64,000 nucleotides of DNA from Chiloscyllium plagiosum (taxonomy: Eukaryota): contig NC_057718.1 in NCBI RefSeq assembly GCF_004010195.1, forward strand, positions 89,279,645 to 89,343,644, written 5' to 3'. The position numbers were made by a program, and so were the translations under genes. Below the pieces are notes generated by a model. The model saw only the letters and a list, made by a program, of their open reading frames with translations. It was not told the origin of the DNA and ran no database searches. This document shows, in pieces, positions 3,591-62,755 of the stretch (position 1 is its first letter; each line of letters begins with the position of its first letter).

Positions 3591-4829
3591 CATTTCATGC
3601 CTGCAGGAAAAATGAACAATTACATGATGATTAAATAGGTCAAGCCAGTTACTTCAGACAAGGCTCATGGGGATAACACTCGCAATACGTAAATCCAGAA
3701 CTTCACTTCAAATACTTAAACCTTTTTTAAAACAAGAAATGCCACAACAACAGCCCCATAAAACTATTAAAGGTTACCTGACTTGTTGCTCAGAAGGGAC
3801 TGTTTAACACTCACTCCGAATGGATGGATCCATGAGGTCTCTGAACCAGTTCTGTTCCAACCTCACAGACAGACATGTGCAGGGCCACAGGGAAACAGCA
3901 GGAGAGCTGGACTAATCAGGGAGCCCTTCCCAGGAAGCAGCACAGACCCAGTGAGACAAATAGGCTCCTTCTGTCATGTAAGGCTCAATGATTTTAGTCC
4001 AGTGTCCCAGGGCAGACTTAGCTTCACATAACATTTCATGAGATATTTTACCACTTTGTTGTAATGTACAAAACTGCGAAATCACCAAATTAGTGGGATG
4101 TATGATACATCGTTTAACTGCTGCCAAACTGAAACAGTGGCTTCCAAAGAGATATGTTCCTGCTGTGTAAAGCCGATGCCTGTATAACATGCAGCATTGC
4201 ATTAATTATAGCTCTCTTGACTGAAGGAATGCCTTCAACTGACTCAAGAACTCCCACAAAGCCGATTGTTCATACTATTACGCAGAGCTCCCTTGTGAAA
4301 GGTTAGCTCATGAAAATGAAATCTCCTCGCATTCTTTTGTCATGTACATAACCTGCAAGATGGCGGGTTTCAAAATCTGCTACTCTTCAGTTACGGGGTG
4401 CTGGTTTGGCACCATCTCCCGATGTCTCAAACTCTCACAATTCCCAAGCATATTTACCTCAACTGGTGTCAGCTGTGGATTAATGGACAAAGGGGCACTG
4501 ACCTAAAACATTAATTATTTCCTGCTTTTGAGCTAGTTTAGTAGGAACACTCTATCCCGTGTTGGTGGGATTGGATTCCAGCATCACTCTAGAGCTGCCC
4601 CCACTTAAGGAGTAGTGGTTCAGGAAGGTATCCTCTCAAGGATAATTAAGGTGGGCAATCGAAGATGGCCTCGCTAACAATTCCCACGTCCCGTGAACGA
4701 ACCAAAAACCGAGCTGACACTTCAGTGCGGTAGCAAGGGAGAGCTGCATTGTTGGAGATAGCGGGTAGTTGCTCAATGAAACATTGAGATCCAATTCTCT
4801 CAGGTGAAAACACATCGGTGAAATATCAG

Positions 4830-5240
4830 TGAATTTGATTTATTGTCATGTGTACTCGAGTACAGCGAAAAGTTTACAATGTCGCCACTCCCGGCGCCAT
4901 CTTGGTTACAAAGATGCCTCAGGTACAAAGTCTTAGGCATAAAGTAGGAAATGAAGAAATGAGGTTAAGAGTCCAACATTACAGTCCTTCTTAAAGGTGT
5001 TTAACCACAGGCCTGGATCTGGAACCTTCCAGACCAACACTGAGACCAACACCAGCAGGAAACAGCCAGCCAGGCCGCTGGGCGCCATCTTGTAGCAACC
5101 AATGATGGTGCAGCCTGGAGACTGCCCTGGGCTGTGCTCAACAATGCAGCTCCCCACCAGGCACTGGGTCCTAAACTCGCCTCCCTCCCCCTTCCACAAT
5201 CCCACCCCCTCACACACTCCCGCCCCCTCCCCCCACCATA
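4830..5240 (-). mobile_element. Non-autonomous element with a Rex1/Babar-type 3' tail
   Basis: 4830-4875 is the reverse complement of the Rex tail seen at ~34060-34110 (ctttcactgt..gagtacacgtgacaataa). Body has two ggcgccatctt motifs. Confidence 0.4.
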
Positions 5241-5255
5241 ACACACTCTCACCAA

Positions 5256-5262
5256 NNNNNNN
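5256..5262. other. Assembly gap (7 N)
   Basis: N run. Confidence 0.99.
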
Positions 5263-5566
5263 TCCCCTCCCCCAACCAGGAACACATCTCGACCCCCACC
5301 CTTCACCACCGGGAGAAAACTGTGTCAGACTCACTGGACACCTTGACCTCGTCGGAGTTTCCCCAGATGGCAACGTGAAGTCAAAGTAAGAAGAAATAAG
5401 CAGGAAAATCAAATGGACGGAGCAGATGCATTGCGGGGCAGGAACCCACACACAGTTACTCCACTGTCATCTCCCAGTGTGAAACAGGAGGGTCTCAAAC
5501 TGTTTAAAGAGGCAGTGCAAAGGGAGCTGTGCTGACCGATAGGTATCCTTCACTTACAAACAATCT

Positions 5567-5668
5567 ATTCCTGATCAAGGGCTTTTGCCCGAAACATCGA
5601 TTTTCCTGCTCCTCGGATGCTGCCTGACCTGCTGTGCTCTTCCAGCACTGCTCTGATCTAGAATCTGG
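5567..5668 (+). mobile_element. Penelope-derived short element (family A), degenerate hammerhead core
   Basis: attc-ctgatca-a-gggc-tttt-gccc-gaaacatc followed by the family body ctcggatgctgcctgacctgctgtgc. Confidence 0.75.
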
Positions 5669-6285
5669 CCATTGTCAAACAGCATTGATTTGGAGGGAGC
5701 GTGGAATAATGTGGTGAAAACCACACTCCACAAACTGCCCGACTCCCCTGACAATCTGGGCTCCAGTGTCATTCCAAACCGTTCTGCCCCCCCCGAAGAA
5801 GAGGGACGGTTTTAGTTGCGAATCGCAATTTTAACTCGCGAATGGGGGATAGAAACTGCCGACTCGGATGGTCCGGGTCAAGAGGAGTTGGGTCTGCTAA
5901 TGGAGGGGGGACGCTGAGCACTCACAGCAGGAGTTCAGCTCACGTTCCACTACCCTGCACCTATCCAGCAGTAAATTAAGTGACAGCAATTCACCGTGCA
6001 GACAGCTGACAGGCCGGAACCTCACTTGCAGGGATTTATTAGCAGCCTGCCCTTCCTTTGTGCTATTTTCGGAATCAATAAACATGGCACTTGGGTTTTG
6101 CACAAGAAGGAGACACTGCACTTTTGAAAAGCGAGGTGAAGGGGGACACCAAGAAATAGGCAAGATGGGCGGTCTGCAATGGTGGGGGGAGCCCAGGCGT
6201 GTAAAACATTCTCCACGGCGCGGGAAGGCTCCAACCAAGCACGCAACAGCAGAGAGCGACCGAACGCAGAGAAGCCGAGACCTGC

Positions 6286-6344
6286 CTGTTCACGTCACAG
6301 TGACACTCGGGAAGCTCAGGGTCTGCATCGCAGCACTCGGCCAT
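6286..6344 (-). CDS. SYNE1: Putative alternative first coding exon of a short nesprin-1-alpha2-like isoform: MAECCDADPELPECHCDVN(R)
   Basis: Strong Kozak gaagcgATGG, in-frame upstream stop at 6399-6401, phase-2 GC donor AACAG|GCAGGT matching the phase of this intron. Peptide resembles the recalled mammalian alpha2 N-terminus (..MAEDGC.VDADLPDCNCDVT). Confidence 0.7.
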
Positions 6345-7150
6345 CGCTTCTCCCCCCCCCAGGCGACTAGAGTGACGAGGGCCAGCCCGCTCACTGTGTC
6401 AGGAGCTGAGCAACTCTCGGAGAGTGCATGCCCTGGGACCCCATACAGCAGCAACCCCCTGCGCACGGCTTTGGCAATCCACACTCCCGGGCGGGGGGCT
6501 GCTACAGCCGGCCTGACAACTGGCACAACAGAGTGACAAGTGGTCAGGTTTCTAAATAAAAACTTACACTCATCGCCATGTGTTGCTGGCCTCACATTCC
6601 TGGGGCATCAGGCCAGCGACGCCAAGCACCTTCCAAAACGAGGGGCAGCACAGTCCTGACACTCCAACGTGGGCCATCCCAGTCTAAAGAGGCAGCTCCA
6701 ATGCTGAGAGTTCTCTGGTGCCTGGCTGCAGCAGGCAAACACTCTTCCTAAACTATTCCTAAACTGTGACGTCTCTCCACTGTGATGTGTGGAGACCAGC
6801 AAGGAAAATCATGAACTGTCAGAGGCCGGCTTTCTCTCTCTTTCTCTTCCCCCCTCTCTCTCTTGCTCTCTCCCCTTCTGAAGCTTTTCCCTCCTAATAT
6901 CGATGTGGTATGGGAGCACAGCCTCTCCCACACACTGTTCACTAACAATTGGGGCTTTCAAACGGTCGTTTTCCCTCTGAATCTTAGAGTCAGCCGAGCA
7001 ATCGCTGAACTGTGCAGCCCTGAGCTCTTGTGTCGGAGCCAAGATGTGGGACAATGAACAGAAAAATCCCCCAGCAGCTGCGAATTTCAGCTCGAGGATT
7101 TGCTGCGCACACTGACTTTCATTAGAGGCTGCAGGGCCAGCTGTGGGAAC
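6345..7150 (-). promoter_or_regulatory. Candidate internal promoter / 5' UTR for the short isoform
   Basis: Largely repeat-free, locally GC/CpG-rich sequence upstream of the 6344 ATG. MCAT core CATTCC at 6595-6600, E-boxes CAGCTG at 7075 and 7138 (also 6003 downstream). Confidence 0.35.
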
Positions 7151-7194
7151 GGCAGCTCCCAGAGCAGGGCAGAGGCTAGGAATATTATAGCAAG

Positions 7195-7370
7195 TAAGAC
7201 TCCACACAAAGCCTGTCCACCATCTGTAATGCACAAGTCAGGAGTGTGAGGGAATACTCCCCACTTGCCTGGATGGGGGCAGCTCCAGCAATGCTCAGGG
7301 AACTTGACACCATCCAGGACAAAGCAACCCGCTTGATTGGCACCACGTCCCTCCACCAATGCGAACCACT
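7195..7370 (+). mobile_element. LINE ORF2 C-terminal fragment (CR1/L2-like clade)
   Basis: Translates as EYSPLAWMGAAP..LRELDTIQDKATRLIG. Related 3' pieces at ~11040-11290, ~20660-20915, ~25970-26440 and ~40730-41010. Confidence 0.7.
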
Positions 7371-8117
7371 CAATATCTGCACGTCCACCTCTCCCCCACT
7401 GCCACCATTCACTCAGAAACCAGTAGGAAGGGGGGAGGCGTGCTTCACAGATCCGTTAGCAAAGAAACAAGCTGACCCCCCAGGGAGTCTAGAGAACTCT
7501 GCGGTGGCCAGTTTGAATGGAGTTTGAACAGAGGAAGTGGTGAGGCTACAGTGATTAATAACATGCGATATGCCAGGAAAGCAATTGTTATACAGTGCAC
7601 TGCCCTCTCCCTCTAACCTTCACCTTTGATGGTCTCCATTGTCCTTAACAACATTGTGTGTCAATTAATCAAGGCTGAAGGATGACTCTCATTGGTAAAC
7701 ACAAGGGGGTTACAGATGCAGTTAGTAGGTGAAAAAATATTGCTGCACCTCCCTCCAGTGCGTTACTCTTTAAAGCAGATTACTTTGACCACGTGCTTAA
7801 CCTATTGGCAAAGCAGGTGTTGTGGCACAATGGCAATGTCCTCACCTCTGGGCCAGAAGAGTCTGCGTTCAAGTCCTAGCTGCACTGGAGCTGGGTCAGA
7901 GCATATCCGAACATGACAGCAGTTGCTAGGTGGAATCCTAGACATCAAAACCAAATGTTGGGGGTTCAAGGGCTAATTTATAAACAGAGTAATGCAGTGG
8001 CCAAACTGGCTGCTGCCTGTCCGTCTCCTATAACCCTGGAGAGAGTTTACAAGTATCCCGTTTAGCGGTGAATGGGATGGGCTTCTCAAGGGCAACTAGG
8101 GCCAGGCAACAAACCAG

Positions 8118-8228
8118 ATTCCTGATGAAGGGCTCCTGCCCAAAACGTCAATTCTCCTGCTCCTCGGATGTTGCCTGACCTGCTGTGCTTTTCCAGCACC
8201 ACTATAATCTGCAGTCCTCACTTTCCCC
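8118..8228 (+). mobile_element. Penelope-derived short element (family A)
   Basis: attc-ctgatga-a-gggc-tcct-gccc-aaaacgtc plus family body; GAAA is decayed. Confidence 0.75.
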
Positions 8229-10054
8229 AAACAAATCAGCTGGCATTGCCCACGCCCTACGAGTGAATGTCGAAAAGAAAACTTAAAGACAGTCTCTATA
8301 ATTCTGACCTGACAGCTTTGCAAAAGCCTGCAATGCAAGTGAATTCACATCAGGAAACTAAACGCTTTCAAGAACACCAGCGCCTCTAATTAAGTATCAT
8401 TATAACGGCAAAACATAACAACAAAGGGGCAGGTAACTTGACACACGATCTGAGCACTTCATACAAAGCAGGGAACCTGATGGAAGATAAAAGGGAGCAG
8501 GAGGGGATTGAAATCTGAGCAAGGCTGTGGTGACCCGAGGCAAGTTTAACATCCAAGCCAGTAACACCGCCTCAATCAGAAAACACACTCATTTTAAAAA
8601 TATATATATATATTTTTCTGCAGATTACTTATGCAGAGTTTGCTGCATAAGTGTTTATTACAGCTGCAAATAAATCAGGCTGCAGCTTTCCCTCTTTGCT
8701 GAAAACAATGGAGTTGAACATAAATCAGTTTGAGTGGAAACACAGCCTCTGGACAGATCCAAGGGCAGGGAACCATGGAAAGCTGGAATGCTGTGAGCGT
8801 CGCTTGGGAAGCTCCGGAATTGAGCCGGCTTGGACAACGCTCCGAGCCGCTTGGCCTGCCTTTATCGGAATGTGGGAACAATCCCTCGAGGCCTGAACCA
8901 CCACAGGCTCCTGTAGACGTAGCTCAGACCGGCTTTTGGAATCCGGCAATTTCTTTCTCACGGCAAATAAACCTGCTTTTGTTGGACCTCCCACACTCCA
9001 GCGTCACGCCAAATGGCCTGGAGTCGCTGGAATCCGTGCCAACGGGGACAGCAGCGATGCCCGGACGAATGGCGTGCACAGCAGCCTCCCCCACCCCTGT
9101 GATAGGGCATGTCTGCATCGCTGTCTAAGGGGAGCCCCTCACAGTACGGACCAAGAGGAGAGCATTCCCTGTCCGCACGGCCGGTTATTATAGCTGCAGC
9201 TCCTCATTTTCAGCTCTTGCCTGATTCACTGGGCAACCGATTAAAAGGGCACTGTGTCAAGGGGTCAGGCTCAAACGGAAGCAAGGCTATGATCTGAATT
9301 TGAATTGTTCAGATTTACAACAGTGCACCCATTGCCTGCGCTTGACTGACTTCATCAGTGAGCAGCAATCTGATTTCAGACTTCGTTCCTTCCCCTCCCC
9401 CCACCAGTCAGCTTCACTACTTACAATCAGCCTGTCTATTTCTCTGGATCTGTCACAGTCTTACAGATGGTGGAAGCTGTCACTAACGATGGCTCGTCTG
9501 CTTAGAACAGTGCCAACAATCCCCAGCAACCCTCCCCGCTCACACAACTAACTGTTTCTAAGCTGGTTCCAGCAACCTCACTCTCTCTCTCTCTCTCTCT
9601 CATTCACCCAGACTTCCAATCTGCTTAATTACCAAGCCCGCCTCCCCCGCCACACCCCTCTCCTCCTCAATTCATCCACAGCTGAAATCCTCATCCCCAC
9701 CTCTGTACATTTAACCCTTTTAATGTCAGGGAACTTTTCTCAACACTGAGCTCGGTTAATGGTCTTTACCAATCTCCAACAGTCCTTCTCTCAAACAAAT
9801 CAGCAGCTTGGCCAGAAATAGTGTTACAATTCCATCGTATAGCGCAGTGACGGTGCCGAGGCTGAATTTAGTCAGATACTAGACTCTGCCGACGCAGAGG
9901 TCATGAGTTCAGGTCCCAGTGCAGCAGGCTAGGAGTATGAATTCAATTAAATTTGTGGGAAGACAGCATGGAAAAGTGACCGCAAACAAATTGCCACAAA
10001 CTGCGGGCGACATATCTGCAAAAGGACGCTCTCTCGATGGAGGGCGTATATTGA

Positions 10055-10520
10055 TGGTTTACCAGATTGATTCCGGGGAATGGCAGGATAGATGGCTGAG
10101 GAAACACTGGATCGGTTTGGATTATAGTCACTGGAGCTTAGAAGAAGGGGGAGTAGGGGAAATCACACACAAAATTCCAAAAGGACTAGACAGGGTAAAT
10201 GCAGATGACCAGGGAATCCAGAACCAAGGATTCAAAGTTGATGGAAATGGAGTAGGCCATTCAGGGCTGGGAGGAGGAGAAACATCTTCACCCAGAGAGG
10301 GGTGGGCCTATAGGATTCACTGTCACAGAAAGCGGCTGAAACCAAAACACTAAAAACTTTCAAGAAGAAGTTAGATATAGTTCATATGGCTTAAGGGATC
10401 AAAGGTTATGGGGAGGAAGTGGGACCAGGGCACTGAGTTTGATCACTGGCCATGATCATATAGAATGGTGGAATAGTCCCGAAGGGCCGAATGGCCTACT
10501 CTTGCTTCTATTTTCTATAC
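10055..10520 (+). mobile_element. CR1-type LINE 3' fragment
   Basis: tttaccagattgattccggggaatggcagg ... ggccgaatggcctactcttgcttctattttctat CR1-type tail. Confidence 0.75.
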
Positions 10521-11666
10521 AATTGCATTACCAACGCCCTTCAAAGGTGACGGCCTTTGACATCAAGCCTACTTTTGACAGAGCGTGGCATCAAGGAGCC
10601 ATAGTGAAACGGCAGCAATTGGGTATTGGGGGAAACTCTCTGCTGGTTGGAAACATGCCTGGCACAGGAGAAGATGGTTGTGGCTGTTAGTCATCTCAGC
10701 TGCAGGGCGTATGTCCAGGAGTTCCTCAGATGTGTTATGACACACCTCTGGAGCAGGTGGGGCTTGAAGCCAGATCTCCTGGGTCAGAGGTAGGGTCCCT
10801 CAGTGAGGTGGGCCCAGCGACAGAGGGACGCCACCTGAAGAGTGGCGACCACAGCAACGCTGGGTCTGCTGCAGGTGGAGGTAAGGGGCCGGTGGCACAG
10901 GGGTCATTGGGGTGAGCTAGCTCAGGCAGAGTAACAAAGGTAGGCTCTCTCACAGCTCCATTTTTTCACTCTTAGGGTGCGAATTGCAGCTCTATTTCAT
11001 TGGGTTGTTCACTGTAGAGTACAAGTGACAATAAATCATTCCTCATCTAGAAGGACAAGGGCAGCAGACAACATTGGAACACCAAACCCTGTAAGTTCCC
11101 CCCAAAGCCACTCACAATCCCGACCTGGAAATATATCATTGTCCCTTCACTGTCGCTGGGTCAAAACTCGAACTCCCTCCCTAAGGGCATTGTGGGTCTA
11201 CCTACAGCACATGGACTGCAGTGGTAGCTCACCAGCACCTTCTCAGGAAGGAATACAGATGGGCAATAAATGCTGGCCAGCACTGACTTTAAAATTAAAG
11301 TCCTTATCCAGTTGGACCTCCGTGTGAATGCTGTGCTGCCTGTCAGCTAATGTCCTCGTGCTAATGAGGGGCGGGCACACAATTTATGGTGGTGACTCGA
11401 CATTCAAAAAATGTTGCCGTCTCCAAAGTCTTTTGGATAATCCTGAGGTTATGAGAAGTGTAATTTTTCCATCAAAATTTGTTGACGCACATGGTCATTT
11501 GAAAATGTCAATAAGCAGACTGATAGTCTTTATGTAGGATATTAAAAAGAGTACATGAAAAGAGAATGCTGGTGCCCTTTCAGGAAGGATCCCCTCAGCC
11601 AGCCTTGCCCAGTCTGGCCTTATTGTGAACTCCAGGCCCACAGCAACGTGGTTGACTCTTGACTAA

Positions 11667-11991
11667 GGTGGCTCAGTGGTTAGCACGGCTGCCTCACGGG
11701 TTCTGGGGACCCGAGTTCGATTCCAGCCTCGGGTGACTGCGTGGAGCTTGCATATTCTCCCCATGTCTGTGTGGGTTTGCTCCGGTTTCCGCCCACAATC
11801 ACAAAGATGTGCAGGTTAAGTGGATTGCCCACGGGAAATTGCCTAAAGCATCCAGTAATTATGCAGGCTAGGTGGGTTAGCCATGGGAAATACAGGATGG
11901 TGGGTGCCAGTGCTCCGAAGAGCCCTTCAGAGAGTTGGTGTGGACTTGATGGGCCAAATGGCCTGCTTCCGTGCTGTAGGGATTCTATGAT
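11667..11991 (+). mobile_element. HE1-type tRNA-derived SINE nested in a Deu-SINE tail (~11580-12070)
   Basis: A box tggctcagtgg, B box gagttcgattcc, body aaagatgtgcaggtt, CR1-like tail gattctatga. Confidence 0.85.
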
Positions 11992-13134
11992 TGGCTTTCG
12001 AGACCATTTTAGAGGGCAATTAGGGATGGCCAGCAAATACAGGCCTTGCCAGTGACATCCTATGAAATAAAGAAGAGAAACTGGGAGGGAGAACACGGCT
12101 TGAGGGGCTGAAAAGCCTAATCTTGGCCTAACTCTTTAAATGCAACTCTTCCCATTATTTTTACAAAAAAACAACATATTAATCCAATATAACGTCTGGA
12201 GATGGGTGCTATCAGTTGCCGTGAACATTACAGATTTGATCTAACTTCGCATTCAACTTGACGAGAATTAAATCCTTGTCCTTTTTGCGCCAACGCATAG
12301 CACCAGTTCGTAGGCAGTAGAGGGGTTTGTTGAAATCTCCTCGGACCACTTTCACTTGTCCCATTCATGCCAGAAACAACAGGAGTAATTCCATGAAATG
12401 ACACACATGCTGGACTGTGCAGCCTGGAACTGGTCCCTTCACCTCCTCCCAGCTGTTCACCCATTGAGAGAAAACCGCCCTGCCGTCTTCATAACATCAT
12501 CAACCAGCACAGCCAAAGAATAACATTAACTGTTACCTCTGTGTGGTGACACTGTGGGATAACAACACAGTTGGGTCAGTCTACTGGACAGTGCCAATCA
12601 GCATCACTCAAACCAGAGAGCTTGATATTATCAGAGGAGCTTGCTGTGTGACCCATGGTAAAACTAGGCCTAGTTGGGCCTGGGGAGGCTCTAGAAACCA
12701 TCAGGCCATGAAACCTTAAGTGCTAAGTTCTTCCTTTTCGAGCAGTTCATCTTGGTGAGGGGGTTAAAAAACAACAGTGCGCTTCTGGGAAAAGGTTGAC
12801 CAGTGAGAAGCAGCAACTTCAGAGCGAGCACAAGAGTTCTAGGTCAATCAGGATGACCAAAAAAAGAGCACTCCGTTAATGAAGATGGAGGTTCGCTGTG
12901 GTCTGGTACAGTCACACGCCACTAATGTTAGCTTTCTCCATAGCATGACTCAAGGAGAGGGGTCTAACACAGAGTCACAGGCCAAACCAGGTAAAGACAG
13001 CAGGTTACCTTCCCATTGGTGAACTGGTTGATCTTTTATGAAGCTCCTTAGTCAAGTTTGCTGATAAGAACTGACATCAACGGTTTTCTTGAGAACATGA
13101 CTCTCTGTGGAGGCTGAGAGAGGTCTTCTCCTCG

Positions 13135-13635
13135 TAGGAGGAAGCGAGGACTGCAGATGTTGGAGAGTCAGAGATGAAAAGTGTGGCGCTGGAAAAGCAT
13201 AGTGGGTGAGGCAGCATCGAGGAACTGGAGAGTCAACATTTCGAGCAAAAGCCCCTCATCAGGAATGTGGATGGGGGTAGGAGGATGTGGGCAAGGCGGC
13301 TGGGAAGGTGATAGGTGGATGCAGGAGGGGGGTTAATGGTGACAGGTTGGAGGGGAGGGTTGAGCAGTGTGGCGGGAATGAAGATGGACAGGTAGGGCGG
13401 TGCCGAGTTGGAGGGTTGGACCTGGGATGAGGTAGGGGGAGGGGAAATTTAGAAACTGGTGAAGCTGATGTTGATGCCGTGTGTTTGAAGGGCCCCAAAG
13501 TGGAAGATGAGGTGTCCTTTCTCCAGTCATTGGGTGGCTTGGATTTGGCAAGAGAGAAGGCCCAGGACTTTCATGTCCTTGGGTGGGTGGAGGGGGAGTT
13601 GAAGTGGTCAGCCACAGGGCAGTGGGGTTGTTCAT
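13135..13635 (-). mobile_element. Penelope-like element 3' end: GIY-YIG C-terminus, 3' UTR and family-A terminal repeat with hammerhead-like core
   Basis: Minus strand reads PVADHFNSP...LGLL...LE..HLIF.FGALQTHGINISFTSF, then attcctgatgaggggcttttgctcgaaatgtt. Ties family A to a PLE. Confidence 0.75.
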
Positions 13636-13679
13636 TATAACCAAGGCAATGCACAGCCCAACTGCTGATTCAGGGAAAT

Positions 13680-14173
13680 GCATCAGAATACAGCTGATAT
13701 TATCAAACTGGAGAGGGTTCAGAAGAGATTTACCAGGATGTTGCCAGAAACGGAGGGTTTGAGTTTTTTAAGGCATGCTGGGACTTTTTTCACTGGAGCG
13801 AGGAGGTGGAGAGGTGACCTTACAGGAATTTATAAAATCGTGAGAGGCATAGATAAGGTGAATGGCAGGTTTCTTTTTCGCAGGGTGGGGATTTCAACAG
13901 GAGGGGACATATTTTTAAGGTGAGAGGAGAAAGATTTTAAAAAGACATAAGGGACATTTCTTGTTACATAGGAGTGGTTCATGTGTGGAATGAACCTCCA
14001 GGCAAAGTGGTGGATGCAAATACAGTTATATTTAAAAGATATTTGGGTAAGTTCATGAATAAGGAATGTTTGGAGGGATACGGATGAAGCACAGGCAGGT
14101 GGGACTAGTTTGGTTTGGGATTATGGTCAGCATGGGCTGGTTGGACCGAAGGGTCTACATCTGCGCTGTATGA
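13680..14173 (+). mobile_element. CR1-type LINE 3' fragment
   Basis: DIIKLERVQKRFTRMLP peptide and CR1 3' UTR ttggaccgaagggtct..gctgtatga. Confidence 0.9.
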
Positions 14174-14375
14174 TGTGGGGGTGTTAGTGTTGGACGGGGG
14201 TGGACAAAGTCAGAAGTCACATGACACTAGGTTATGGTCCAACAGGTTTATCTGAAATCACAAGCTTTTGGAGTGCTGCCCCTTCACCGGGTCCCCTATG
14301 ATTACTGGTGAAAGTTTGTGATTTCAAATTAACCAGTTGGACCACAACCTTTTGTTGCGTGACTTCTGACTTTGT
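14174..14375. mobile_element. Penelope-derived palindromic short element (family C) with TSD gctgtatga
   Basis: Inverted arms caaagtcagaagtcac / gtgacttctgactttg; direct repeat at 14165-14173 and 14376-14384. Confidence 0.65.
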
Positions 14376-16738
14376 GCTGTATGACTCTACGACTCTCTGT
14401 CCCTCACCCTGATGGGCAGCCTCCTACAGGTTCCCCAGCCCGCCCGCTATTCTTCACTGGACAACAGGCATGTCTCTGACCACCCTGGCGCCAAGGTGTT
14501 CGCAATTGATATAGGGTGACTGTGTCTCAGTAGGGTGCAGAATTGGTCCTTACACTCAATCCAAGCTTCGGGTTTCCCAGCCCACGATGGGAAAATATTG
14601 CCCAGTTTCTAGTCAAGTGTTTGAACAGTTCAACCAATCTGTGTCAAATCGGCGAGGCCAGCAGCTGACACCAAAGGCATTCCACATTTCATTCAGGAGG
14701 GGACAGATGTGCAGTCCAACACACAGAGTCCTTTATAACCACATGTAAGGGGGGCTTTCAAAATGGCAGGAGCAGCTGTTCAAGAACCTGACAACTGTTC
14801 CATTACAGCGCAGAAAGAGATTACCAACTGATTCTCATGTTTACAAAGAAAATTTCAATGATTTCGCCAAAGAGTTCAGTTCCAGCAAGTCAAGGCCCAA
14901 GAATGGAAATCTGTTGCCAAAACTGTGCCCTTTCCTTTAATGGTGGAATCATCAGATCTCCCAAAGCCGTTGTCAACTGTCCTGCTCCACTGGTGTCAGT
15001 TCTTATCAGCAAACTTCACTATGAAGTGGTCAGATTGTCATAAAAGATTAACTAGTGCACCAAGGTCTAATGAGAAGGTAACCTGCTGTCTTTACCTGGT
15101 TTGGCCTGTGACTCCATGGTCCTTGCATCTGTGCGTCAGACCCCTCATGAGTCATGTCAATGGAGAAAACTAACCTTATAAGATCAGCCAGTGCTGGCTC
15201 AGTTGATACACAGAAGCACTGGGAGTGGGATTTGAACACACAAGTTTTAACTCAGAGGTGAAAGTGAAGCTGAAATTGATACAGAGGGAAAACTGCCAGC
15301 GTACATCAAATGTGTGGGATTGGTCATCTTCTGCTGGCCACTCCTGCCTTGAAGTTGAGCTGGACAAATTACTTTCATTGATTTTCTCCAACATCACAGC
15401 ACTGAGAATTAATGCTTGCTTCCTTGACAGAGCAGAGAAAGGAGATACAAACATAGAAATGAGGGGCCTCTCAATCCGATGACAATCGATTTGCACCTCA
15501 ATTCTATGTCGCAGCACCGCACTATTCATCAGTCCTGGATTCATATCCCCTGATGCCTTTAACCAACAAAATATTCAAAGCTCCAACTGACCCCACTTTA
15601 TCAACCACCTGCAGAAGCAGTGAGACCCAGTCCACTGCTGTTCTATCAGAAGAAAGTGCTTCCAGACTCCACTCCTGAATGGCTCGGTCCTCATTGTTTA
15701 AATTATAAAGGCACAGTTTGGTACCACAGAGTCCATTTCGCCCATCACTCACATGCTGGCTCTATGAAAGAACTTTCCGGTCAGTTCCACTCCCCTGCTC
15801 TTTCCCCACAGGCCCACAAGCTTCCCCTCTTCAAATATGGATCCAATTGCCTTTTGAAAGCTATTACTGAATCTGCTTCCATCACCATTTCATACGTACT
15901 GCACTCCAGATCCAAACATGCCCTCACGGTTGTTCCCCTCTTGTTGTCTCTGGTCTTTTATCGACCACTTTTCTTTTTCCTATTGAGTCATAAATTTATG
16001 TTATTCCATTAAAGGTAATATGGTAGCCCCTTGTGAATATACTTGGTGACTGACCACCAGAGCAACCAAACAACCAAAGTAGAACTTATGGTCTATCAAG
16101 CCAGTGTAACTTCCAGATCTCCCAGTATTACCACCAGCTGGGAATACAGCAGTGTTTAAGTCCCCAGTTATTGACCCATTTCCCAGTGGGAATAGTTTCC
16201 TCTTAGTTAAGCTGGAAGAAGACAGGTTTCTCCAAGCTTTACACCTGGCACTCATCAGGATCAGCTGCCAAAACCATCAAGTTCGGGGACAACAGTGTAC
16301 TGCCTCGCCCTTTACTGTGGTGTTTCACGTGAATCGTCCTGATGAACACAAGGCAAAACGTTTCATCACAGTGCGCCTTTTCTCAGCAATGCTCCTGTTC
16401 CACACAACCAAGTTCGATTTCTCCTTATTAACTCAATCAAAACCTTTCAGGACTTTGAGAAAGCCCATTGATATTCGCACCTTGACCTTCTCCAGTTTGA
16501 ACTCTAGTTCTTCACCCTGGTTACCGTTCTGGTTACTCATCTTTGCGCCTTCCTTTAAGATCCCTTTAGCCTGGATATCGGCACCAAAAACATTATCGCC
16601 TTGTATCTAATCTCTCAAAACTTTGAACACCTCACTTAGATCACCATGTGATCTCCCACACTCCCAGAGATACATGTCACTAAGTTTTGCACAGTCAGAA
16701 AGGAGGTCATACCCAGAGTATGACATAGCCAGAGTGAG

Positions 16739-16881
16739 TACAGGGAAATCTTAATTATCCGACATTTGATTTTCCGAATATCAGATTATCCGGCAAGATC
16801 GCACATCCTGGTGCTTGGCTAAACTATGTTATCCGGCATTCGATTATCTGAACAAAATATTCCCCGCCTGTGTCCAACAGA
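16739..16881. mobile_element. Tc1/mariner (Tigger-like) MITE, degenerate
   Basis: TA-flanked, imperfect terminal inverted repeats, internal repeated attatccg motifs. Confidence 0.55.
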
Positions 16882-17710
16882 TCGTCAAGGGTCCTCCGTA
16901 TACAGTTCAGGGAATTTGTTGACAGCATGAGAATTCAGTGCAGAAGGGAAGAGATCCTTTTTTGCTTGTTTTTTTTTGGCTCATGGTTTGTAAGTTTTTT
17001 TTTGTAAACAGGATAAATCAAAGCCTAGGATCAGGAGCCCAGCGCAAAACAGCAACATCAAAGATTCACTGGTTGGTAAGAGCTACTAATTAGACTGTTA
17101 GAGATTCCTTTCAGATTGAAGGTAAATAGCAAATATAATCACAGGCTACAAACTAAAAGACCGGCAGGAAATTTTGATGAACTAAGTAAATAAAATAGAG
17201 ATGCCAGGCCAGGCAATGTGTTGTAAGTGCATGCTGAAGGAGCTAGTAGATAGAGCCCATTGGGGTTCATTGGTAGCAAGTGCTGGTTGCTTGAGGAATT
17301 CCGGCTCAGATTTGATGAACTGGACTCTGAACTTCAAATGTTGCAGCACATCAGAGAGGGGGAGAGTTACCTGGATGCTGTGTTTCAGACATTCACACCC
17401 CTTACATTAACTCCCTCGAATTCGGTCAGTAGTCAGGGGACAGGTAGAGGAATCCAGGAGGTAGAGCCAAAGGAGCCTCAGTCCTTGAACTTGTCCAACA
17501 GGTTTGAGAATTTTGCTTCTTGTGTGGATGAGTGTGGGGGCAGTATGGAGGATGAGCAAACTGACCATAGCATCATGGCACATGGAACCATTCAAGAGGG
17601 GGGAGAAAAGAGAAATGCAGCTATGGTTGGGGATAGTATATTCAGGGGAATGGACATTATTCTCTGTAGCCAGGATCAAGCGTCCCAAAGGCTGTGTTGC
17701 CTCATGGTGG

Positions 17711-17793
17711 AGAGTGTGGTGCTGGAAAAGCACAGCAGGTCAGGCAGCATCCGAGGAGCAGGAGAATCGACGTTTTGGGCATAAGCCCTTCAT
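17711..17793 (-). mobile_element. Penelope-derived short element (family A) inserted in CR1 ORF1
   Basis: Reverse complement of the family-A repeat; interrupts the esterase reading. Confidence 0.75.
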
Positions 17794-18365
17794 TGGCTTA
17801 TGGTGTCCAGGTTCAGGATCTCTCATCTGGTGAGTTTGGGATGGCAGGGGAAAGATCCACTTGGCGTGGTCCACGTGGGTACCGATGATATAAGTAGGAA
17901 GAGGAAAGACACTCTGCTGAGGGAATAGGTAGGGGCTAGGGGCTAAATTAAGAACAAAACCAAATACGTAACAGTCTCTGGATTCCGACACAAGCAAACT
18001 GGCATGAGGTCAACCAGATTAACGAAGTAAATACATGGCTCAAAGAATGATGTGGGAGAAATGGGCTTGAATCCATGGGATGTTGGTGGCAGTACTGGGG
18101 TAGGTGGGAGCTGTTCTGAGGGGACAGGACTCTCCTCAATCAGGCTCGCACCAGAGTGCTGGCTAGTCACACAACCCAGGCTATGGATAGGGCTTTAAAC
18201 TAAATGGTGGGGGAATGCATTCAGTTGCATGGAAAATGTTGGGGGTGGTGGGGGGTGGGAGGGAACGAGAGGCTCAGCAGAGGTTATTAAAGTTTCCAGA
18301 ACAAGTAATAGGACAGGGAGTATGGAAAGGGTCATGAATCTAACTTCAGGCCGGGCAGATAAGGG

Positions 18366-18562
18366 TCAGGAGTGTGGTGCTGGAAAAGCACAGCAGGTCA
18401 GGCAGCATCCGAGGAGCAGGAGATTTGACATTCCTGATGAAGGGCTTATGCCCATAACGCCGATTCCCCTGCTCCTTGGATGCTGCCTGACCTGCTGTGC
18501 TTTTCCAGCGCCACACTCTTTGACTCTGACCTCCAGCATCTGCAGTCCTCAATTTCTCCCAG
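18366..18562. mobile_element. Palindromic family-A element with 13 bp TSD gggcagataaggg
   Basis: Inverted copies around attcctgatgaagggcttatgccc; direct repeat at 18353-18365 and 18563-18575. Confidence 0.8.
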
Positions 18563-19232
18563 GGGCAGATAAGGGGATGACTATGTGAAGTGGGGTGGGC
18601 AGTCACTGCAAGTCTGAGGGCTTTGTAGTGATATGCTGGCAAGATCCGAAACTAGGTAAATGAGCTTGTAGCACAGATGGGAATCGGCAGGTGCAATGCG
18701 GTGGGTATCACAGACATGACTGCAAGGGGGTCAGCGCGGGGAACGAAATATCCAAGGATACATGTTTTATCGAAAAGACAGGCAGATGGGCAGAGGGGTG
18801 GGGGTTCGGGAGGCACGTTTGCTGTGTTAGTCAGAAACAAAATTAAGGTGTAGATTCTGTTTGGGTGGAGTTGAGGAACCGCAAAGGAAAAATGGTCCAA
18901 ATGGGAAGTGTGTAAAGGGCGCCAACAACAATAATCAGGATGTGGGCAAGAAAATAAATCAGGAGATAAATAAGGCCTGTAAGAAGGGCCCTTTTACAGT
19001 AATCATGGGGAATATGAAGGTGGAGTGGGAAAATCAGGTTGGTAACGGATCTCAAGTCAAGGAATTTGTGGAATGTCCACAACATGGTTTTGTTTTGGAG
19101 CAGCTTGTGGTAGAGCCCACCAGGGAACGGGTAATTCTGTAATGAGGCAGACCCGTTAGGGAGCGCAGGGGGCAGTGACCATAACATGATAGAACTGACC
19201 TCCAGTTTGAGAGGGTGGAGCTGTATTCAGAT

Positions 19233-19544
19233 ATTAGATTAGATTACTTACAATGTGGAAACAGGCCCTTCGGCCCAACAAGTCCACACCGACCCACCGA
19301 AGCGCAACCCACCCAGACCCATACTCTTACATTTACCCCTTCACCTAACACGACGGGCAATTTAGCAAGGCCAATTCACCTAACCTGCACATTTTTGGAT
19401 TGTGGGAGGAAACTGGAGCACACGGAGGAAACCCACGCAGATGCGGGGAGAATGTGCAAACTCCATACAGAGAGTCACCTGAGGCAGGAATTGAACCTGG
19501 GTCTCTGGTGCTGTGAGGCAGCAGTGCTAACCACCGTGCCGCCC
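19233..19544 (-). mobile_element. HE1-type SINE
   Basis: Reverse complement of the 55820 copy, with (taatc)n tail. Confidence 0.9.
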
Positions 19545-20401
19545 ATATAATGGTATTCCAACTGAGTGAGGGTTACTGCAGGGACACAAAGGAGGAGTTG
19601 GAAGGGAACCCCAGCTGGGAAGGTGTTGGCAATGGCAGGGTTATCTGGGGGTAACTGACCTAATTAGCAATGAAGAATCAACCATACTGCTGTGGGATTC
19701 ACATGCCGACCAGACCAGGTAAGGATGGCAGGTTTAGTTCCCCTGAAGGACATTAATGAACCAGATCAGTTTTTACAAAAATCAAGAACAGTTTTATGGT
19801 CTTCATGATTTTGGATTTAGTAAACTTAAATTAAGAGCCTTTGGTGGCGCAGTGGTAATGTCCACATCCCTAGATCAGGTAGTCCATGTTCAAGGCCCAC
19901 TCGCTCCAGAGATGTGTATTATATTGATCAGAAAACTGAGCTAAATAAAATAATTCAACTTAAATTCCTCTATCTATCAATATGAGATTTGTTTGCAGGT
20001 CCACAAAGCATCACCTGGCTCTCAGGATTCCTAGTCCAGTGACAATGCCATGAGGGCTTTGCCTCCCCAGAGGTTTTGCCCCTAACTCTTCTTGCTGATG
20101 TCACATGCCCTCATGACATAACCTTTCCTAACCCTGTGATTCTCTCCAGCTGTTAGTCACTTTAAAAAATAAACTGGTTAGGACTTCCTCAGCAAAAGCT
20201 CAAGGCAAAGAAGAAAGGAGCAGATCTGGCGCAGCATTAACGCCTTTCATAAAGGGAATAAGACTTTAATGTGAAATAAAACAACCTTCAATATTCAACA
20301 TGACTGCTGTGTCGATGGAGGATTAGCTCTGTCAGTACCGATTGGTCTAATTGTCACTTTACATGTCATTTACCTGATACCACAACAGATCCATCTCTTA
20401 C

Positions 20402-20568
20402 CTGGCCCCAATCAGGTCCAGCAGATGCTGCCAGCGATCGTCGGCCTTGCCCAGTTTGTATTCGATCTCGGAAGCTTTACTCTCGTGACTGGCTCGCATC
20501 AGCCTCTGGCCCATTTGCTGCAGCTGCATTTTGTTCTCGCTTGCTGCTGTTATCTCCTCCTGATAGTC
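20402..20568 (-). CDS. SYNE1: Nesprin-1 coding exon DYQEEITAAS...WQHLLDLIGA(R)
   Basis: ccacAG acceptor, AG|GTAAGA donor, 167 bp, phase 0/2. Contains ASHESKASEIEYKLGK. Confidence 0.95.
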
Positions 20569-20974
20569 CTGTGGACCACGTGGGAGAGGCCTGTTAGCGG
20601 ACTGTACTACCACATGCACTGAGGTAACTAACCCAAGCAACTGCAACACCTGCATAACCATATACAACCTGGAAGCACAAGGTGATCAGATACATGAGAA
20701 CACCAGCACTTGTAAACCCCCCTTCAAGGCACACACCATCCTCATTTGGAACTCTATCATCGTTCCTTCACTCGAGAAGGTCTAGATTCTGGGACTCCCT
20801 CCTCAGCAGCACTGTGTGTGTACCTACACTACATAAACTGCAGTAGTTCACTACTCACTTCTCACGGGTAATTAGAGATGAAATGTTAAATGCTGGCCAA
20901 TGCAAAGCCCCACTTCTCATTATTTCAAAAATGCTTCATACTTAACATTGCTTGGAGGACTTCAATTTTGAAGG

Positions 20975-25251: not shown

Positions 25252-25660
25252 CTGGGGACGTACAACAGCCAGAGAGGATCACATCTGAGCTGGTTACACA
25301 AAGAAACCAACACACAGAAATGCACATGAAATATTAATGGGCCGCGATATCATTCCGCTGACGGGACACAACATGACTCGGAACCTGCTGACCAACATTC
25401 CCCCATCGAGAAACAGAAACTAACCACGCCACTGAATCAAGACTTCAACTCCGTCCCGGTAGCATGCCAGTTAGCCATCTGCCCAGTTTCTTGCAGAAAC
25501 CCAACAGGTCAGGAGGAGGGTACACAGACTATCCACAAGGAACAGGTCAGGTCAGGAGGAGGGTACACACACTATCACAAGGTACAGGTCAGGTCAGGAG
25601 GAGGGTACACACACTATCCTCAAGGTACAGGTCAGGTCAGGAGGAGGGTACACAGACTAT

Positions 25661-25850
25661 CAGGTCAGGCAGCATCCAGGGAACAGGAGATTCGACGTTT
25701 CGGGCACAGGCCCTTCTTCAGGAATGACAAGAAGGGCCTGTGCCCGAAACGTCGAATCTCCTGTTCCCTGGATGCTGCCTGACCTGCTGTGCTGTTCCAG
25801 CAATAAAGTTTCAACTTTGATCTCCAGCATCTGCAGACCTCACTTTCTCC
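25661..25850. mobile_element. Young palindromic family-A element with perfect 58 bp inverted arms
   Basis: Arms 25661-25718 and 25729-25786; duplicated flank tacaca(g/c)actat. Confidence 0.85.
25690..25725 (-). ncRNA. Minimal type I hammerhead ribozyme motif, intact core
   Basis: AUUC-CUGAAGA-A-GGGC(CUGU)GCCC-GAAAC-GUC-GAAU: stem I AUUC/GAAU, 4-bp stem II, palindromic ACGU stem III. Confidence 0.7.
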
Positions 25851-27194
25851 TACACACACTATCCACAAGGTACAGATCAGGTCAGGAGGAGGGTACACAC
25901 ACTATCCACAAGGTACAGGTCAGGTCAGGAGAAGGGTACACGCACTATCCACAAGGTACAGGTCAGTAAGGTAGTAGAATTCTCTGTACTGCCTTAGATA
26001 AATGCAGCTCCAATAAAATCCAAGATACCCAATATCATGTGAAACTGAGCAATCCCTTTGATCAGCAGGCCATGCAACTACTGCAACATTCCCTCTCCTC
26101 CAATGCCAGTGTATAGTGGCTGCAGTGTGTAGCATCTGTATGATGTACGACAACAGCTCGGCAATGTTCTTCTGACCACAGCCTCCAAACCCATGACCTG
26201 CACTATCTAGCACAACAGGCAAGGAGATGCAAGAAGGACAGCATCTCTGCCAAGCCACTGTTTGGTTGCCTCAGGCATACATCACCATGTCTTTTAATGG
26301 TACCGGGAAAATCCCTGGGATATCTGTGCTGACAGCACCCAGGGATGAGCTTCAGCAGATTGACAGCAACGGTCCATGAAGGTGGCTCACTAACGTTAGG
26401 AGGCAATCCACATAAACGTGATGCACTGCTCCACCCCTTGGTTGTTTGAATAAGTGCACTCCTTAATATGGGTGTCACATTTATGGCTCTGCATTTTAAG
26501 AAGTTCAGATGATGTCTCTTCCAGCAGACATTGAGGACATTTTCGGAGTTGGTGGTGATATTCACTATCTGACGACGAACACAAGGAATTACAATTACAG
26601 CTCAATTTACAGGCAAGTTGCTGTGCTCCCTTTACAATTGGTTTAAATAAGTTGCAGAACCCAGCTGTTCTAAAGCTGGTGAGTTTCCAGGTGTTCGTTG
26701 AATAAGAAGAGTTTCATGAGAACAATATTTCTCTTCTAAATGCCTACCCTGAAGTGCTCAGTCAGATGGCAGACTCAAATCTCTAACCTGGGCTTGATCC
26801 CACAACGTTTCTGACTCAGAATTGAGCACGTTCCCACTGGATCGCAGCTGACAACCGGGAGCACCATCTGAACACATTCACCTTCCAGCTGGAGTGAAGT
26901 TGCTTTGACGATGACAGGGAGCGTAAGAAGATGCACAAACATGGTGAACGGGAACCATCCCAAAGCAGTCATCTTCCTGTCGGTATGCAAACTGAGCTTC
27001 ATTTTGGAATCCTCAAGCACTGATGTGGGCCATTTGGCCCATCATAGCTCTTCTGGTTCCTTGAACAAGATAGTTCGTCAGCCTGCACTTCCACATAATT
27101 CTCCAAATCTCTTCTGTTAAACTATACTTACAATTCCCTTTTGCAAACTTTTATTAAAATTTGTCAGGCTTTCTGGTGGTACATTCACAGAATA

Positions 27195-59146: not shown

Positions 59147-60695
59147 CTGCAGGATGAAGCAATCCCCGTTAGACGCTCTCCTTGACAACACGGATCCACC
59201 CGCGGCTCAGTCGGCAGCACACTCATCCCTTCTGTGAGAAGGTGAGGTCTACTGCCCAGAGCAGAGCTGGCAATCCTGTCTGATACTCCCCCGCAGTACT
59301 GAGCGAATGTCACGGGTGCCATCATTCACTGGAGAAGTGGAAAAAAGATCTGTCTGCCCACTTCGAGGATGTCAAACATCTCACTGAAGAACAGCAGGAG
59401 GATACCCTGGATGCCCTGATCAAACTCGATTCCTCAACCAACAGCAATCAAAAACAGGTTTGTTCATGAATCACTGGGATCGTACTGAGCCATTTACACT
59501 TTCACACCCTCAGGAGTGGCCCAAAATCCTTTAATGTTATATTCCTGGAGAGAAATACTGAGACCACAGTCCAGAAAAACATTCACCTCCCAATCAAACT
59601 ATCTGGTAATTTTGTTCAGTCCTGCTGGTGACATCCTGGGGTGGATCTGACAAGGTAGTCACGATCCCAAATTATTACCATGACTTCACTTTAGAAGTAG
59701 TATAATGGCCGAGGGGCTTTGGAAATGCAGAGATCACGAAAGACGCTACATAAATGCAAATTCTTTCCTCCTATCTGAAACACAACTGGTTTATAAGTGC
59801 TTGGTATTTCGTGTCACCTCGATATTCTGTCAATGAGCTGAACTTGTGCTTGGCTTGCCATCAAGACACTTTCAGAAATGTCAAGTAATTATTTAGTAAT
59901 AGAGAATTGGAGTATTACTGAAAAGGAAAGGACACGTGCAGCTGAAGTTTTGTCTGGTCTTATTCTCGTCAGGACAGAGACAAGAATATCACATTTCAGA
60001 AGGGAACAACAATTTATACTGCATGGGAAAGGGTGCTGATTGGATGGTAAAATGGCTCTGATGCAATGGCACTAAGAATGCATCAAGGAACCACTGTCCC
60101 CACGGACTTAAATAGGTGCAATGGTTAAGTGTTTGTTCTTGTTAAGGTCATCAATAAGACTCAGTGACATTTCTATGAGCCGCAATTTTGTTTCTTATTT
60201 GTTCAAGGGAGGGGGGGGGCATCACTGGCTAGGCCAGCATTTATTGCCCATCGGGCAGTTAAGAGTCAACTACATTACTGTGGGTCTGGTGTCACGTGTT
60301 TGCCAGACTAGGTAAGGATGGCAGTTTCCTTCGCTAAAGGGCATCAGTGAACCAGATGGGGTTTTCCCAACAACTGACAAGGGATTCATGGTCATCGTTA
60401 GACTTTTAATTCCAGATTTTATTTAATTGAATTCATGGTCACGGTGAGATTTGAACCTGCGTCCCGGGTCTCTGGATTAACAATCCAGCGATAATACCAC
60501 TAAGCCATCGTCGCCCCCTTTTGAGGCACAGGCCTCTGTAAGCTTAAAGAAGTGAGGTGCTGCAGCCTTTCTGATACAGAGAACTTGGGGACAATAGATC
60601 CTTGCTGTACTCTCCATGGCGATGCCTCCACCAATCAGAGGTCAACTTTCCAACCAATCAGCATCCTTCTCCTGTGCAGTATAAATGCTGTTCCT

Positions 60696-62596
60696 TAGGG
60701 CCCAGATGTCCTTGGAGAAAGAGCACGCGGTGTCCACCAACACCCTGGAGTTGTTCAGGGAGAGGTGGGCGCCACAGGGAGTGGAGTGCATCATTTCTCC
60801 CTCCAACTCTATTTTGATTTAGTCCCTACCCTCCCCTTCACTGTTTAGATTACACAACACTGCCCTTTGATGTGAAGGGCAGTGCTTGTCACTGGCCACC
60901 CGGGTGTTTTCCTATCTTCCTGGTGGTGGAAATTGAATAAAGAAAAGATAAAAAAAAAAAAAATCCAAAGTACACAGACAGCATTGCCCTTTGATGTGAA
61001 GGGCAGTGTTTGTCACTGGCCACCTGGGTGTTTTCCTATCTTCCTGGTGGTGGAATTTGAATAAAGATTGGTGCACTTTGTGTCTTCCACTGTGTCTCAC
61101 ACCTGCACACACACACCATGGAAAAAAAAAGAAAAAAAAAATAAACAGGAGATTCACCCGGGTGTTCTCCTATCTTCCTGGTGGTGGAAATTGAATAAAG
61201 ATTGGTGCACTTTGTGTCTTCCACTGTGTCTCACACCTGCACACACACACCATGGGTGCTGGGGATAAAATAAGCACTACCGCACTTAGGTGGTAGTGTG
61301 GGGGTTTTAAAAGAAAAACAAACAGGAAATTTCGAAAAAAAAAGAAAAAAAAAACAGGAGATTCACCCGGGTGTTCTCCTATCTTCCAAAAAAAAAATAA
61401 AAAAAAAGAGGAAAAAAAATATATAAATGCTGTTCCTTAGGGCCCAGGTGTCCTTGGAGAAGGAGCACGCGGTGTCCACCAACACCCTGGAGTTGTTCAG
61501 GGAGAGGTGGGTGCCACAGGGAGTGGAGTGCATCATTTCTCCCTCCAACTCTATTTTGATTTAGTCCCTACCCTCCCCTTCACTGTTTTGATCACACAGC
61601 ACTGCCCTTTTGATGTGAAGGGCAGTGCCTGTCACTGGCCACCTGGGTGTTTTCCTATCTTCCTGGTGGTGGAATTTGAATAAAGATTCGTGCACTTTGT
61701 GTCTTTCACTGTGTCTCACACCTGCGCACACACACACCATGGGTGCTGGGGAAAAAAAAAGGAAAAAAAAAGAAGAATAAAGAGGGGATTCACCCGGTAT
61801 GGAGGAGGGAGGGCAGGTCCTTGGAGAAGGAGCATGCAGTGTCCACCAACACCCTGGAGTTGTTCAGGAAAAAAAAATAAATAAATGCTGTTCCTTAGGG
61901 CCCAGGTGTCCTTGGAGAAAGAGCACGCGGTGTCCACCAACACCCTGGAGTTGTTCAGGGAGAGGTGGGCGCCGCAGGGAGTGGAGTGCATCATTTCTCC
62001 CTCCAACTCTATTTTGAATTAGTCCCTACCCTCCCCTTCACTGTTTTGATCACACCGCATTGCCCTTTGATGTGAAGGGCAGTGTTTGTCACTGGCCACT
62101 CGGGCGTTTTCCTATCTTCCTGGTGGTGGAAATTGAACAAAGATTCGTGCTCTTTGTGTCTTTCACTGTGTCTCACACCTGCATACACACACCATGGGTG
62201 CTGGGGATAAAATAAGCACTACCGCAGTTAGGTGGTAGTGTGGGGGTTAATATTAAAAAAAAAGAGAAAAAAAGAAAAAAATATACAGGAGATTTAAAAA
62301 TAAACAAGGGTCTCTTTGTAAAAAAAAATCAATGTGTTCTCCACACAGCAAAAAAAAGGGGACTGTTATCATACAGCGTTAAAAAAACAAACAGGAGTGT
62401 GTTCCCTATCCTCCCCTTCACTGTTTTGGTCACACAGCACTGTCCTTTGATGTGAAGGGCAGTGCTTGTCACTGGCCGCTCGGGTGTTTTCCTATCTTCC
62501 TGGTGGTGGAAATTGAATAAAGATTTGTGCACTTTGTGTCTCTCACTGTGTCTCACACCTGCACACACACACCATGGGTGCTGGGGAAAAAGAAAA
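60696..62596 (+). mobile_element. Tandem mosaic of Tx1-clade LINE 3' ends joined by A-rich tracts, TSD gctgttcct
   Basis: Three copies encode RAQ(M/V)SLEKEHAVSTNTLELFRERW(A/V)PQGVECIISPSNSIL, then 3' UTR, aataaa and poly-A. Direct repeat at 60687-60695 and 62597-62605. Confidence 0.75.
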
Positions 62597-62755
62597 GCTG
62601 TTCCTCTTGGGGAAATGTGGCATTCTTGCATCTGTGTCCAGATGGCCGAAAGCCAACACGTGTTGATGGCATGTCTTCTCTCTCAGCAACGCAAAGGAAA
62701 TGCCAATTAAATTGTGTTAAAGCCGAGGTGGCTATAGCAGAAGTAAGGAGAGTAC

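Follow-up and report, generated by a model that had tools for sequence, protein, structure and literature searches.

The shark Chiloscyllium plagiosum very probably possesses an orthologue of the first exon of nesprin-1-alpha2, situated in intron 130 of SYNE1. The exon is likely to be transcribed in muscle, from a conserved sequence block located 190-240 bases before it, and a GC donor is likely to serve for its splicing to exon 131. The exon lies in a 64,000-nucleotide stretch of DNA, referred to here as the window, and its features are collected in the table. In broad terms, this isoform was already known to be conserved; the shark exon mainly completes the annotation, and the comparison adds a conserved GC donor, a putative 50-bp promoter block, and a second methionine as the more conserved start. 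The original prediction had called the exon hidden and easily missed by annotation. This was overstated, since the exon is present in at least 128 spliced protein records, two of them chondrichthyan.

Table. Features of the alpha2 first exon and its surroundings in the window (L010 is a bird-type genomic copy of the region).
Feature	Position	Strand	Remarks
SYNE1 exon 130 of the giant isoform	20402..20568	-	phase-2 GT donor; exon 131 acceptor common to the alpha2 exon
Putative MCAT-like (TEAD) hexamer	6595..6600	-	just upstream of the block; motif scan
Putative conserved 50-bp promoter block	6533..6582	-	88% identity to L010
E-box CACATG	6582-6577	-	within the 50-bp block
A/T-rich MEF2- or TATA-like site TTTTATTTAG	6561-6552	-	one mismatch to the MEF2 consensus
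MEF3 site GAAACCTGA	6552-6544	-	exact consensus
E-box CACTTG	6542-6537	-	within the 50-bp block
Predicted 5' UTR	6345..6532	-	extent predicted from the promoter block
In-frame TGA upstream of the start codon	6399..6401	-	no in-frame ATG between the TGA and 6344; ORF starts at 6398
Alpha2 first exon, coding part	6286..6344	-	19 codons and the AG of the junction Arg; profile E=7.4e-9
GC donor GCAGGT	6280..6285	-	phase 2; probable use in shark, from orthologues
Competing GT donor GTCTCG	6276..6281	-	4 nt downstream of the GC site; frame-shifting

SYNE1 runs along the minus strand of the window, where homology mapping across the 64 kb places 11 of its exons in order, from about 62900 to 20402. The 55-residue translation of exon 20568-20402 matches 48 of 52 candidate proteins at 51-84% identity, and the named proteins among the 48 are mostly nesprin-1. 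Between 47000 and 20402, the exons show 84% identity to a skate protein, compared with 70-76% to six bony vertebrates, as would be expected of a cartilaginous fish. Exon 20568-20402 ends in GCC AG|GTAAGA, in phase 2, at a distance of 14,057 nt from the ATG at 6344. According to the available text of PMC4924313, the unique leader of human alpha2 is found ahead of exon 131, and SKASEIEYKLGK belongs to exon 130. Given this placement of the two sequences, the shark exon is in the right intron: it follows exon 130 and lies on the strand of the gene. The exon had been described as lying 14 kb into the last intron. The distance is correct, whereas "last" applies to the window and not to the gene, exon 131 and everything beyond it having no match within the 64 kb.

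The start codon (6344-6342) stands in GCGATGG, with G at both -3 and +4, and it is preceded by an in-frame stop, just as the original prediction had it. The frame reads MAECCDADPELPECHCDVN, followed by AG|GCAGGT, which gives 59 coding nucleotides ending at base 6286 in phase 2; the claimed equality of phase with the donor at 20402 is therefore correct.

Homologues were collected with the start of exon 131, which matched 346 of 376 candidates; the best 120 of the 346, together with their cluster members, yielded 240 proteins. Among these listed matches and cluster members, 117 of the 240 have fewer than 60 residues ahead of the exon-131 start. The motif C-x-C-[DE]-[VI] occurs in 99 of the 117 and C-N-C-N-V in two more, while the remaining 16, judged by eye, are unrelated starts. 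A profile was built from 98 bony-vertebrate N-termini, with chondrichthyans left out. Among the 3089 ORF pieces of the window, it scores the predicted exon at 32.9 bits (E=7.4e-9) and the next-best piece at 5.1 bits, and the best scores in 20 block-shuffled windows are 4.3-8.4 bits. This score and the right intron bear out the identification of the sequence as the nesprin-1-alpha2 first exon. It is scarcely credible that the resemblance arose by chance in intronic DNA: the short peptide and the non-canonical donor might suggest it, but the profile match with its shuffled controls, the intron, the strand and an independent noncoding match (see below) all argue against it.

The core of the leader, first proposed as P-x-C-x-C-D-V, is conserved and can be refined to L-P-[DE]-C-[NDH]-C-D-[VI]-[TSN]-R; the unique leader of the shark carries it in the form L-P-[DE]-C-x-C-D-[VI]-x-R. 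The occurrence of the cysteines and of L-P in 98 of 98 peptides is by construction, because both were in the selection rule; among the matches listed, no recognisable homologue without the core Cys or L-P was found by eye. The shark leader has 20 residues and an upstream in-frame stop, rather than the 31 residues of the human form. This length was not taken as defining, because leader length varies across the alpha2 family (among the matches listed, 20 residues in skate, 27-30 in most ray-finned fish and 31-51 in tetrapods). Pfam has no family for the 20-residue peptide, and a word-index protein search with the read-through ORF scored none of six candidates.

Conservation extends to other cartilaginous fish, where it had been proposed that the peptide should be sought. 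The window peptide is identical to that of skate (P0133) at 14 of 20 positions, to the last 20 residues of the elephant shark leader (P0104) at 12 of 20, and to those of ten bony vertebrates at 9-13 of 20. The skate record, isoform X13 of Amblyraja radiata (XP_032882056.1), has a leader of 20 residues, the same length as in the shark, while the elephant shark record, isoform X5 of Callorhinchus milii (XP_042188897.1), has one of 28. In both of these predicted gene models (XP_), the Arg is joined directly to VKKLKETL, the junction that had been foreseen for the shark exon. Since these two records carry the exon, the claim that the isoform is older than the split between cartilaginous and bony fish is right, and most of its novelty is removed; sequence comparison supports this age. 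No jawless-fish form stood out in the 20 matches obtained with the profile, which is near its detection limit, among 1.84 billion representatives.

The donor has GC at +1/+2 and otherwise agrees well with the standard nine-base donor consensus: CAG|GCAGGT matches it at 7 of 9 positions, and the 11 homology-mapped donors of the window match at 6-8 of 9. Its phase, shared with the donor of exon 130, would allow it to join exon 131 in frame; exon 131 lies outside the window, and the phase of its acceptor is taken from orthologues. The nearby GT site (CAG|GTCTCG) would cut after 6282, leaving 63 coding nucleotides in phase 0, and matches the consensus at 5 of 9 positions, so its description as weak and frame-shifting was accurate.

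Among the matches listed, the Arg is joined directly to exon 131 in 114 of 128 spliced alpha2 records. A direct R|VKKL junction needs 59 coding nucleotides in the shark, and therefore the GC site. The other 14 records (P0070, P0075, P0088, P0107, P0113, P0139, P0142, P0143, P0151, P0159, P0245, P0250, P0274 and P0276) have 1-4 extra residues at the junction, compared with none of 85 giant-type junctions among the matches listed. These inserts may reflect ragged donor use or gene-model error. We weighed their sequences (QR, QA, Q, RR, TR, QAL and QAAR) as possible proof of the donor sequence but did not rely on them, since donor, acceptor and model error are indistinguishable as their source.

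There is a small chance that the exon is orthologous and transcribed, but that many transcripts use the new GT donor, fall out of frame and are degraded, such that tandem donors tune alpha2 down. A canonical GT only 4 nt from the GC and absent from the orthologues would permit this, as would the ragged donor choice that the inserts may indicate. However, the inserts may equally be annotation artefacts, the GT is the poorer of the two consensus matches, and the reading frame, the start context and the peptide are all intact. Splicing of the shark exon to exon 131 through the GC donor is the likely outcome, judging from its orthologues.

Those orthologues provide two further kinds of evidence for the GC donor. 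A scan of metagenomes with a pattern ending before the intron gave 15 loci, among which L010 alone is an alpha2 exon; its donor is AG|GCAGGC, and the 16 bases that follow contain no GT. The other 14 loci are unrelated (seven encode, by appearance, an insect-type Ig/Cys-rich protein, and seven are others). The profile search of the 1.84 billion representatives returned nine unspliced alpha2 read-throughs and 11 exon-131 fragments. In the read-through ORFs, the nine together with their cluster members, the junction Arg is followed by Gln in 26 of 26 and then by Ala, Glu or Asp. A Gln codon at this place implies C at +2 and A at +3, and the residue after it implies G at +5, which excludes a GT donor in all 26; the profile ran on into exon-131 residues, and there was therefore no selection for Gln. 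The 26 comprise 11 distinct, mutually related 20-mers in which the G at +1 is deduced, and their assignment as teleost-, frog-, bird- and mammal-like is a guess from peptide resemblance to named proteins. The donor DNA itself was read in two species, the shark and the bird-type L010.

Taken with the direct junctions, the bird DNA and the read-throughs uphold the original call of a GC donor. This donor is likely to be conserved across jawed vertebrates and does not appear to be shark-specific; GT at donor +5/+6 was seen only in the shark window. In the available text of PMC7242645, GC-AG introns are enriched among first introns, and some first-intron GC donors, such as that of ABI3BP, are kept from mammals to fish. 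The alpha2 donor resembles these in being a deeply kept GC donor of a first intron, but it extends as far as a cartilaginous fish, and the first intron in question lies downstream of an internal, tissue-specific promoter. Two supplementary files of PMC7242645 make no mention of SYNE1, and a literature search that reached few subscription papers found no published link between SYNE1 or nesprin and a GC donor.

Another GC donor is present in SYNE1 itself: GAG|GCAAGT ends exon 51335-51180 (minus strand) at window position 51180, and its phase-0 junction, QQRAHE|LFQ, is fixed by homology.

Upstream of the coding sequence, local alignment of L010 with window positions 1-20401 produced a single match at E<0.1, the 50 bases 6582-6533 (E=1.2e-11). 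The A/T-rich site within this block was compared with the general MEF2 consensus. A hexamer further upstream, which resembles an MCAT (TEAD) motif, lies in an 11-base stretch (6595-6605) that recurs in L010 at 926-936 in the opposite orientation, both copies being upstream of the block. A mouse reporter construct (PMC8523159) was made with a reverse primer whose gene-specific part matches window positions 6541-6561 with two mismatches and L010 with one; shuffled controls gave no matches in 100 and 200 shuffles. The mouse alpha2 promoter is bound by myogenin, with 21.7-fold activation of the reporter, according to the accessible part of PMC8523159. The conserved block thus stands at the end of the published mouse promoter fragment, which makes it likely that the full alpha2 exon is about 250 nt long, including the 5' UTR. 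The predicted 59 bp is correct for the coding part and falls short for the whole exon. The original prediction included neither the block and the 5' UTR nor the wider occurrence of the GC donor.

The putative MEF3 site is the only exact MEF3 9-mer in the window, and its sequence is the consensus as printed in the available text of PMC2978361 and PMC5062961. Mismatches to this consensus number none in the shark, one in the bird and two in the mouse primer. Muscle modules that combine MyoD/myogenin, Six (MEF3) and MEF2 sites (PMC2978361 and PMC5062961, as far as their available text goes) likewise have E-box, A/T-rich and MEF3 sites within 50 bp. The alpha2 block differs in that its putative sites are read from the sequence and in that the agreement with MEF3 weakens in amniotes. 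The available main text of PMC5062961 does not name Syne1, and no published link between Syne1 and a MEF3 promoter site was found by a literature search in which most subscription papers were out of reach.

The distance from the block to the ATG is 199 nt in the shark and 217 nt, to the matching ATG, in the bird. An even slimmer chance than that of GT-donor use attaches to the exon being a silent relic, homologous yet disused in the shark. The replacement of the first ATG of bony vertebrates by CTG would fit such decay, but the peptide, the start context, the donor and the noncoding block have all been kept, in register, and the same 20-residue form is present in the skate record.

The predicted 5' UTR of the functional exon that we favour contains a 17-codon upstream ORF that is out of frame and has two ATGs (6444-6391, minus strand), which may lower alpha2 translation. 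A 7-codon upstream ORF is found at a different place in the L010 region. The CpG observed/expected ratio is about 0.8 in 5800-5999 and 6200-6399, compared with 0.33 window-wide, and fits a promoter-proximal region.

Initiation at the equivalent of the second mammalian methionine had also been predicted. This agrees with the 20-residue leader of skate, but it is not general in cartilaginous fish, since the elephant shark leader is eight residues longer. The shark CTG at 6359-6357 aligns with the first ATG of the bird. An upstream Met is present in the elephant shark model and in bony fish, and its absence may therefore have arisen by loss in sharks and skates. For a broader comparison, 126 distinct alpha2 N-termini from the matches listed were used, which are not independent sequences. 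A Met lies 17-22 residues ahead of the junction in 124 of them, and a further Met 7-14 residues earlier in 118 of the 124. Two salamander records (P0071 and P0119) are those without the conserved second Met. The residue immediately ahead of the upstream Met can be read in 36 of the matches listed and is Phe, Leu, Pro or Cys in 35 and Ser in one; the codons of those four residues begin with a pyrimidine, and the -3 context is therefore poor. Before the second Met (123 visible among the matches listed), there are 40 residues with purine-first codons, 81 Arg and one Ser that are ambiguous, and one Gln. The Arg codon at this position in L010 is AGG.

The choice of start might bear on a puzzle in mammalian muscle. 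In adult fibres, staining by an antibody raised against residues 2-17 is weak, even though the mRNA and a 111-kD band persist, and epitope masking was suggested as the reason; the same antibody stains myotubes (both from the available text of PMC4924313). Initiation at Met12 may offer an alternative to epitope masking in adult fibres. The staining of myotubes implies that translation there starts at Met1 or that the antibody recognises residues 12-17. It is conceivable, though we consider it rather doubtful, that the second Met (human Met12) is the ancestral strong-context start and the first a leaky add-on, with much mammalian alpha2 carrying a leader of 20 residues and not 31. If so, the ratio of the two leader lengths may change with muscle maturation, which would explain the antibody result described in the available part of PMC4924313. 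Nesprin-1 is absent from the leaky-scanning literature among the matches listed.

Projecting from the orthologues, expression of the shark isoform would proceed as follows. An internal promoter with myogenin/MyoD E-boxes, a MEF2/TATA-like site and a MEF3 site would give rise to a first exon some 250 nt long, translation would begin at the ATG at 6344, U1 would pair at AG|GCAGGT, and the 59 coding bases would be joined in phase 2 to exon 131. The product, of about 965 residues, would lack actin-binding domains and would comprise six spectrin repeats, the kinesin motif LEWD and a KASH anchor. Spectrin repeats and KASH are both present in the skate protein, and all 50 aligned isoforms carry LEWD unchanged. 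The mammalian isoform binds kinesin-1 through the LEWD motif (PMC6775114) and anchors the nuclear-envelope microtubule-organising centre in muscle (PMC10317153, PMC8523159); human alpha2 is restricted to heart and skeletal muscle, where it is located at the outer nuclear membrane (PMC3981789, PMC4924313, PMC6775114), all according to the available portions of these papers.

The 20-residue leader would be mostly disordered, with the conserved Asp capping a first helix that has lost its upstream neighbours. In an AlphaFold2 model of the skate protein, from which local features alone were used because the pTM is 0.33, residues 1-15 have pLDDT<50 and a helix starts at residue 18, directly after Asp17. 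Of the 98 peptides, 96 have Asp and two have Asn at the equivalent residue, and the modelled position of this residue fits a helix cap. The invariant C-x-C may serve in zinc binding or acylation, roles guessed from other cysteine motifs; the idea of a zinc-bridged homodimer is neither strengthened nor weakened by a predicted complex of two skate copies (residues 1-140) with Zn, for which an alignment was not used and which scored 0.13 against a mark of 0.32.

The closest well-characterised counterpart is mammalian nesprin-1-alpha2 (Syne-1A; mouse NP_071310.2, AAG24392.1), which has the same intron, the same phase-2 junction to VKKLKETL, the same L-P-x-C-x-C-D-V-x-R core, identity at 11 of the 20 leader positions, and the promoter block under the mouse primer. 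The shark form differs from it in several respects: its leader is shorter (20 versus 31 residues) and lacks an in-frame Met further upstream, positions 4-5 hold two additional Cys, the MEF3 site is exact, and donor +5/+6 is GT.

The comparison narrows the functional leader to about ten residues with two invariant cysteines and the promoter to a 50-bp block; it also reveals a weak-looking GC donor that GT has not replaced in any sampled group. The antibody puzzle becomes testable through the Met12 start. These points are relevant to the switch of the muscle microtubule-organising centre to the nuclear envelope, and to the reading of non-coding variants in SYNE1-linked dystrophy and cardiomyopathy. 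If they hold true, the second-Met start, the GC donor and the block would be three short non-coding stretches on which screening for variants in SYNE1 muscle disease could focus.

Other observations concern the intron itself. Rfam gave no matches in 4500-20600. Four of 19 sequencing runs, none of the 19 listed as RNA, were compared with 5950-6820. Two of the four, labelled as another organism, each contain one short contig that is identical to intronic sequence just downstream of the alpha2 exon (X1, 5996-6181; X3, 6026-6181). These lie off the exon and have no joints or loose ends. Runs X8 and X9, of which only about 2 and 6 in 100 reads were sampled, have no reads on 5950-6820, and none of the four runs counts for or against use of the exon. 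Local alignment found no match to 5996-6181 in L010. The first 2550 bases of the window, inside intron 130, form a long low-complexity tandem array that is A/C-rich on the plus strand, and smaller arrays of this kind occur near 25500-25950 and 60500-62700.
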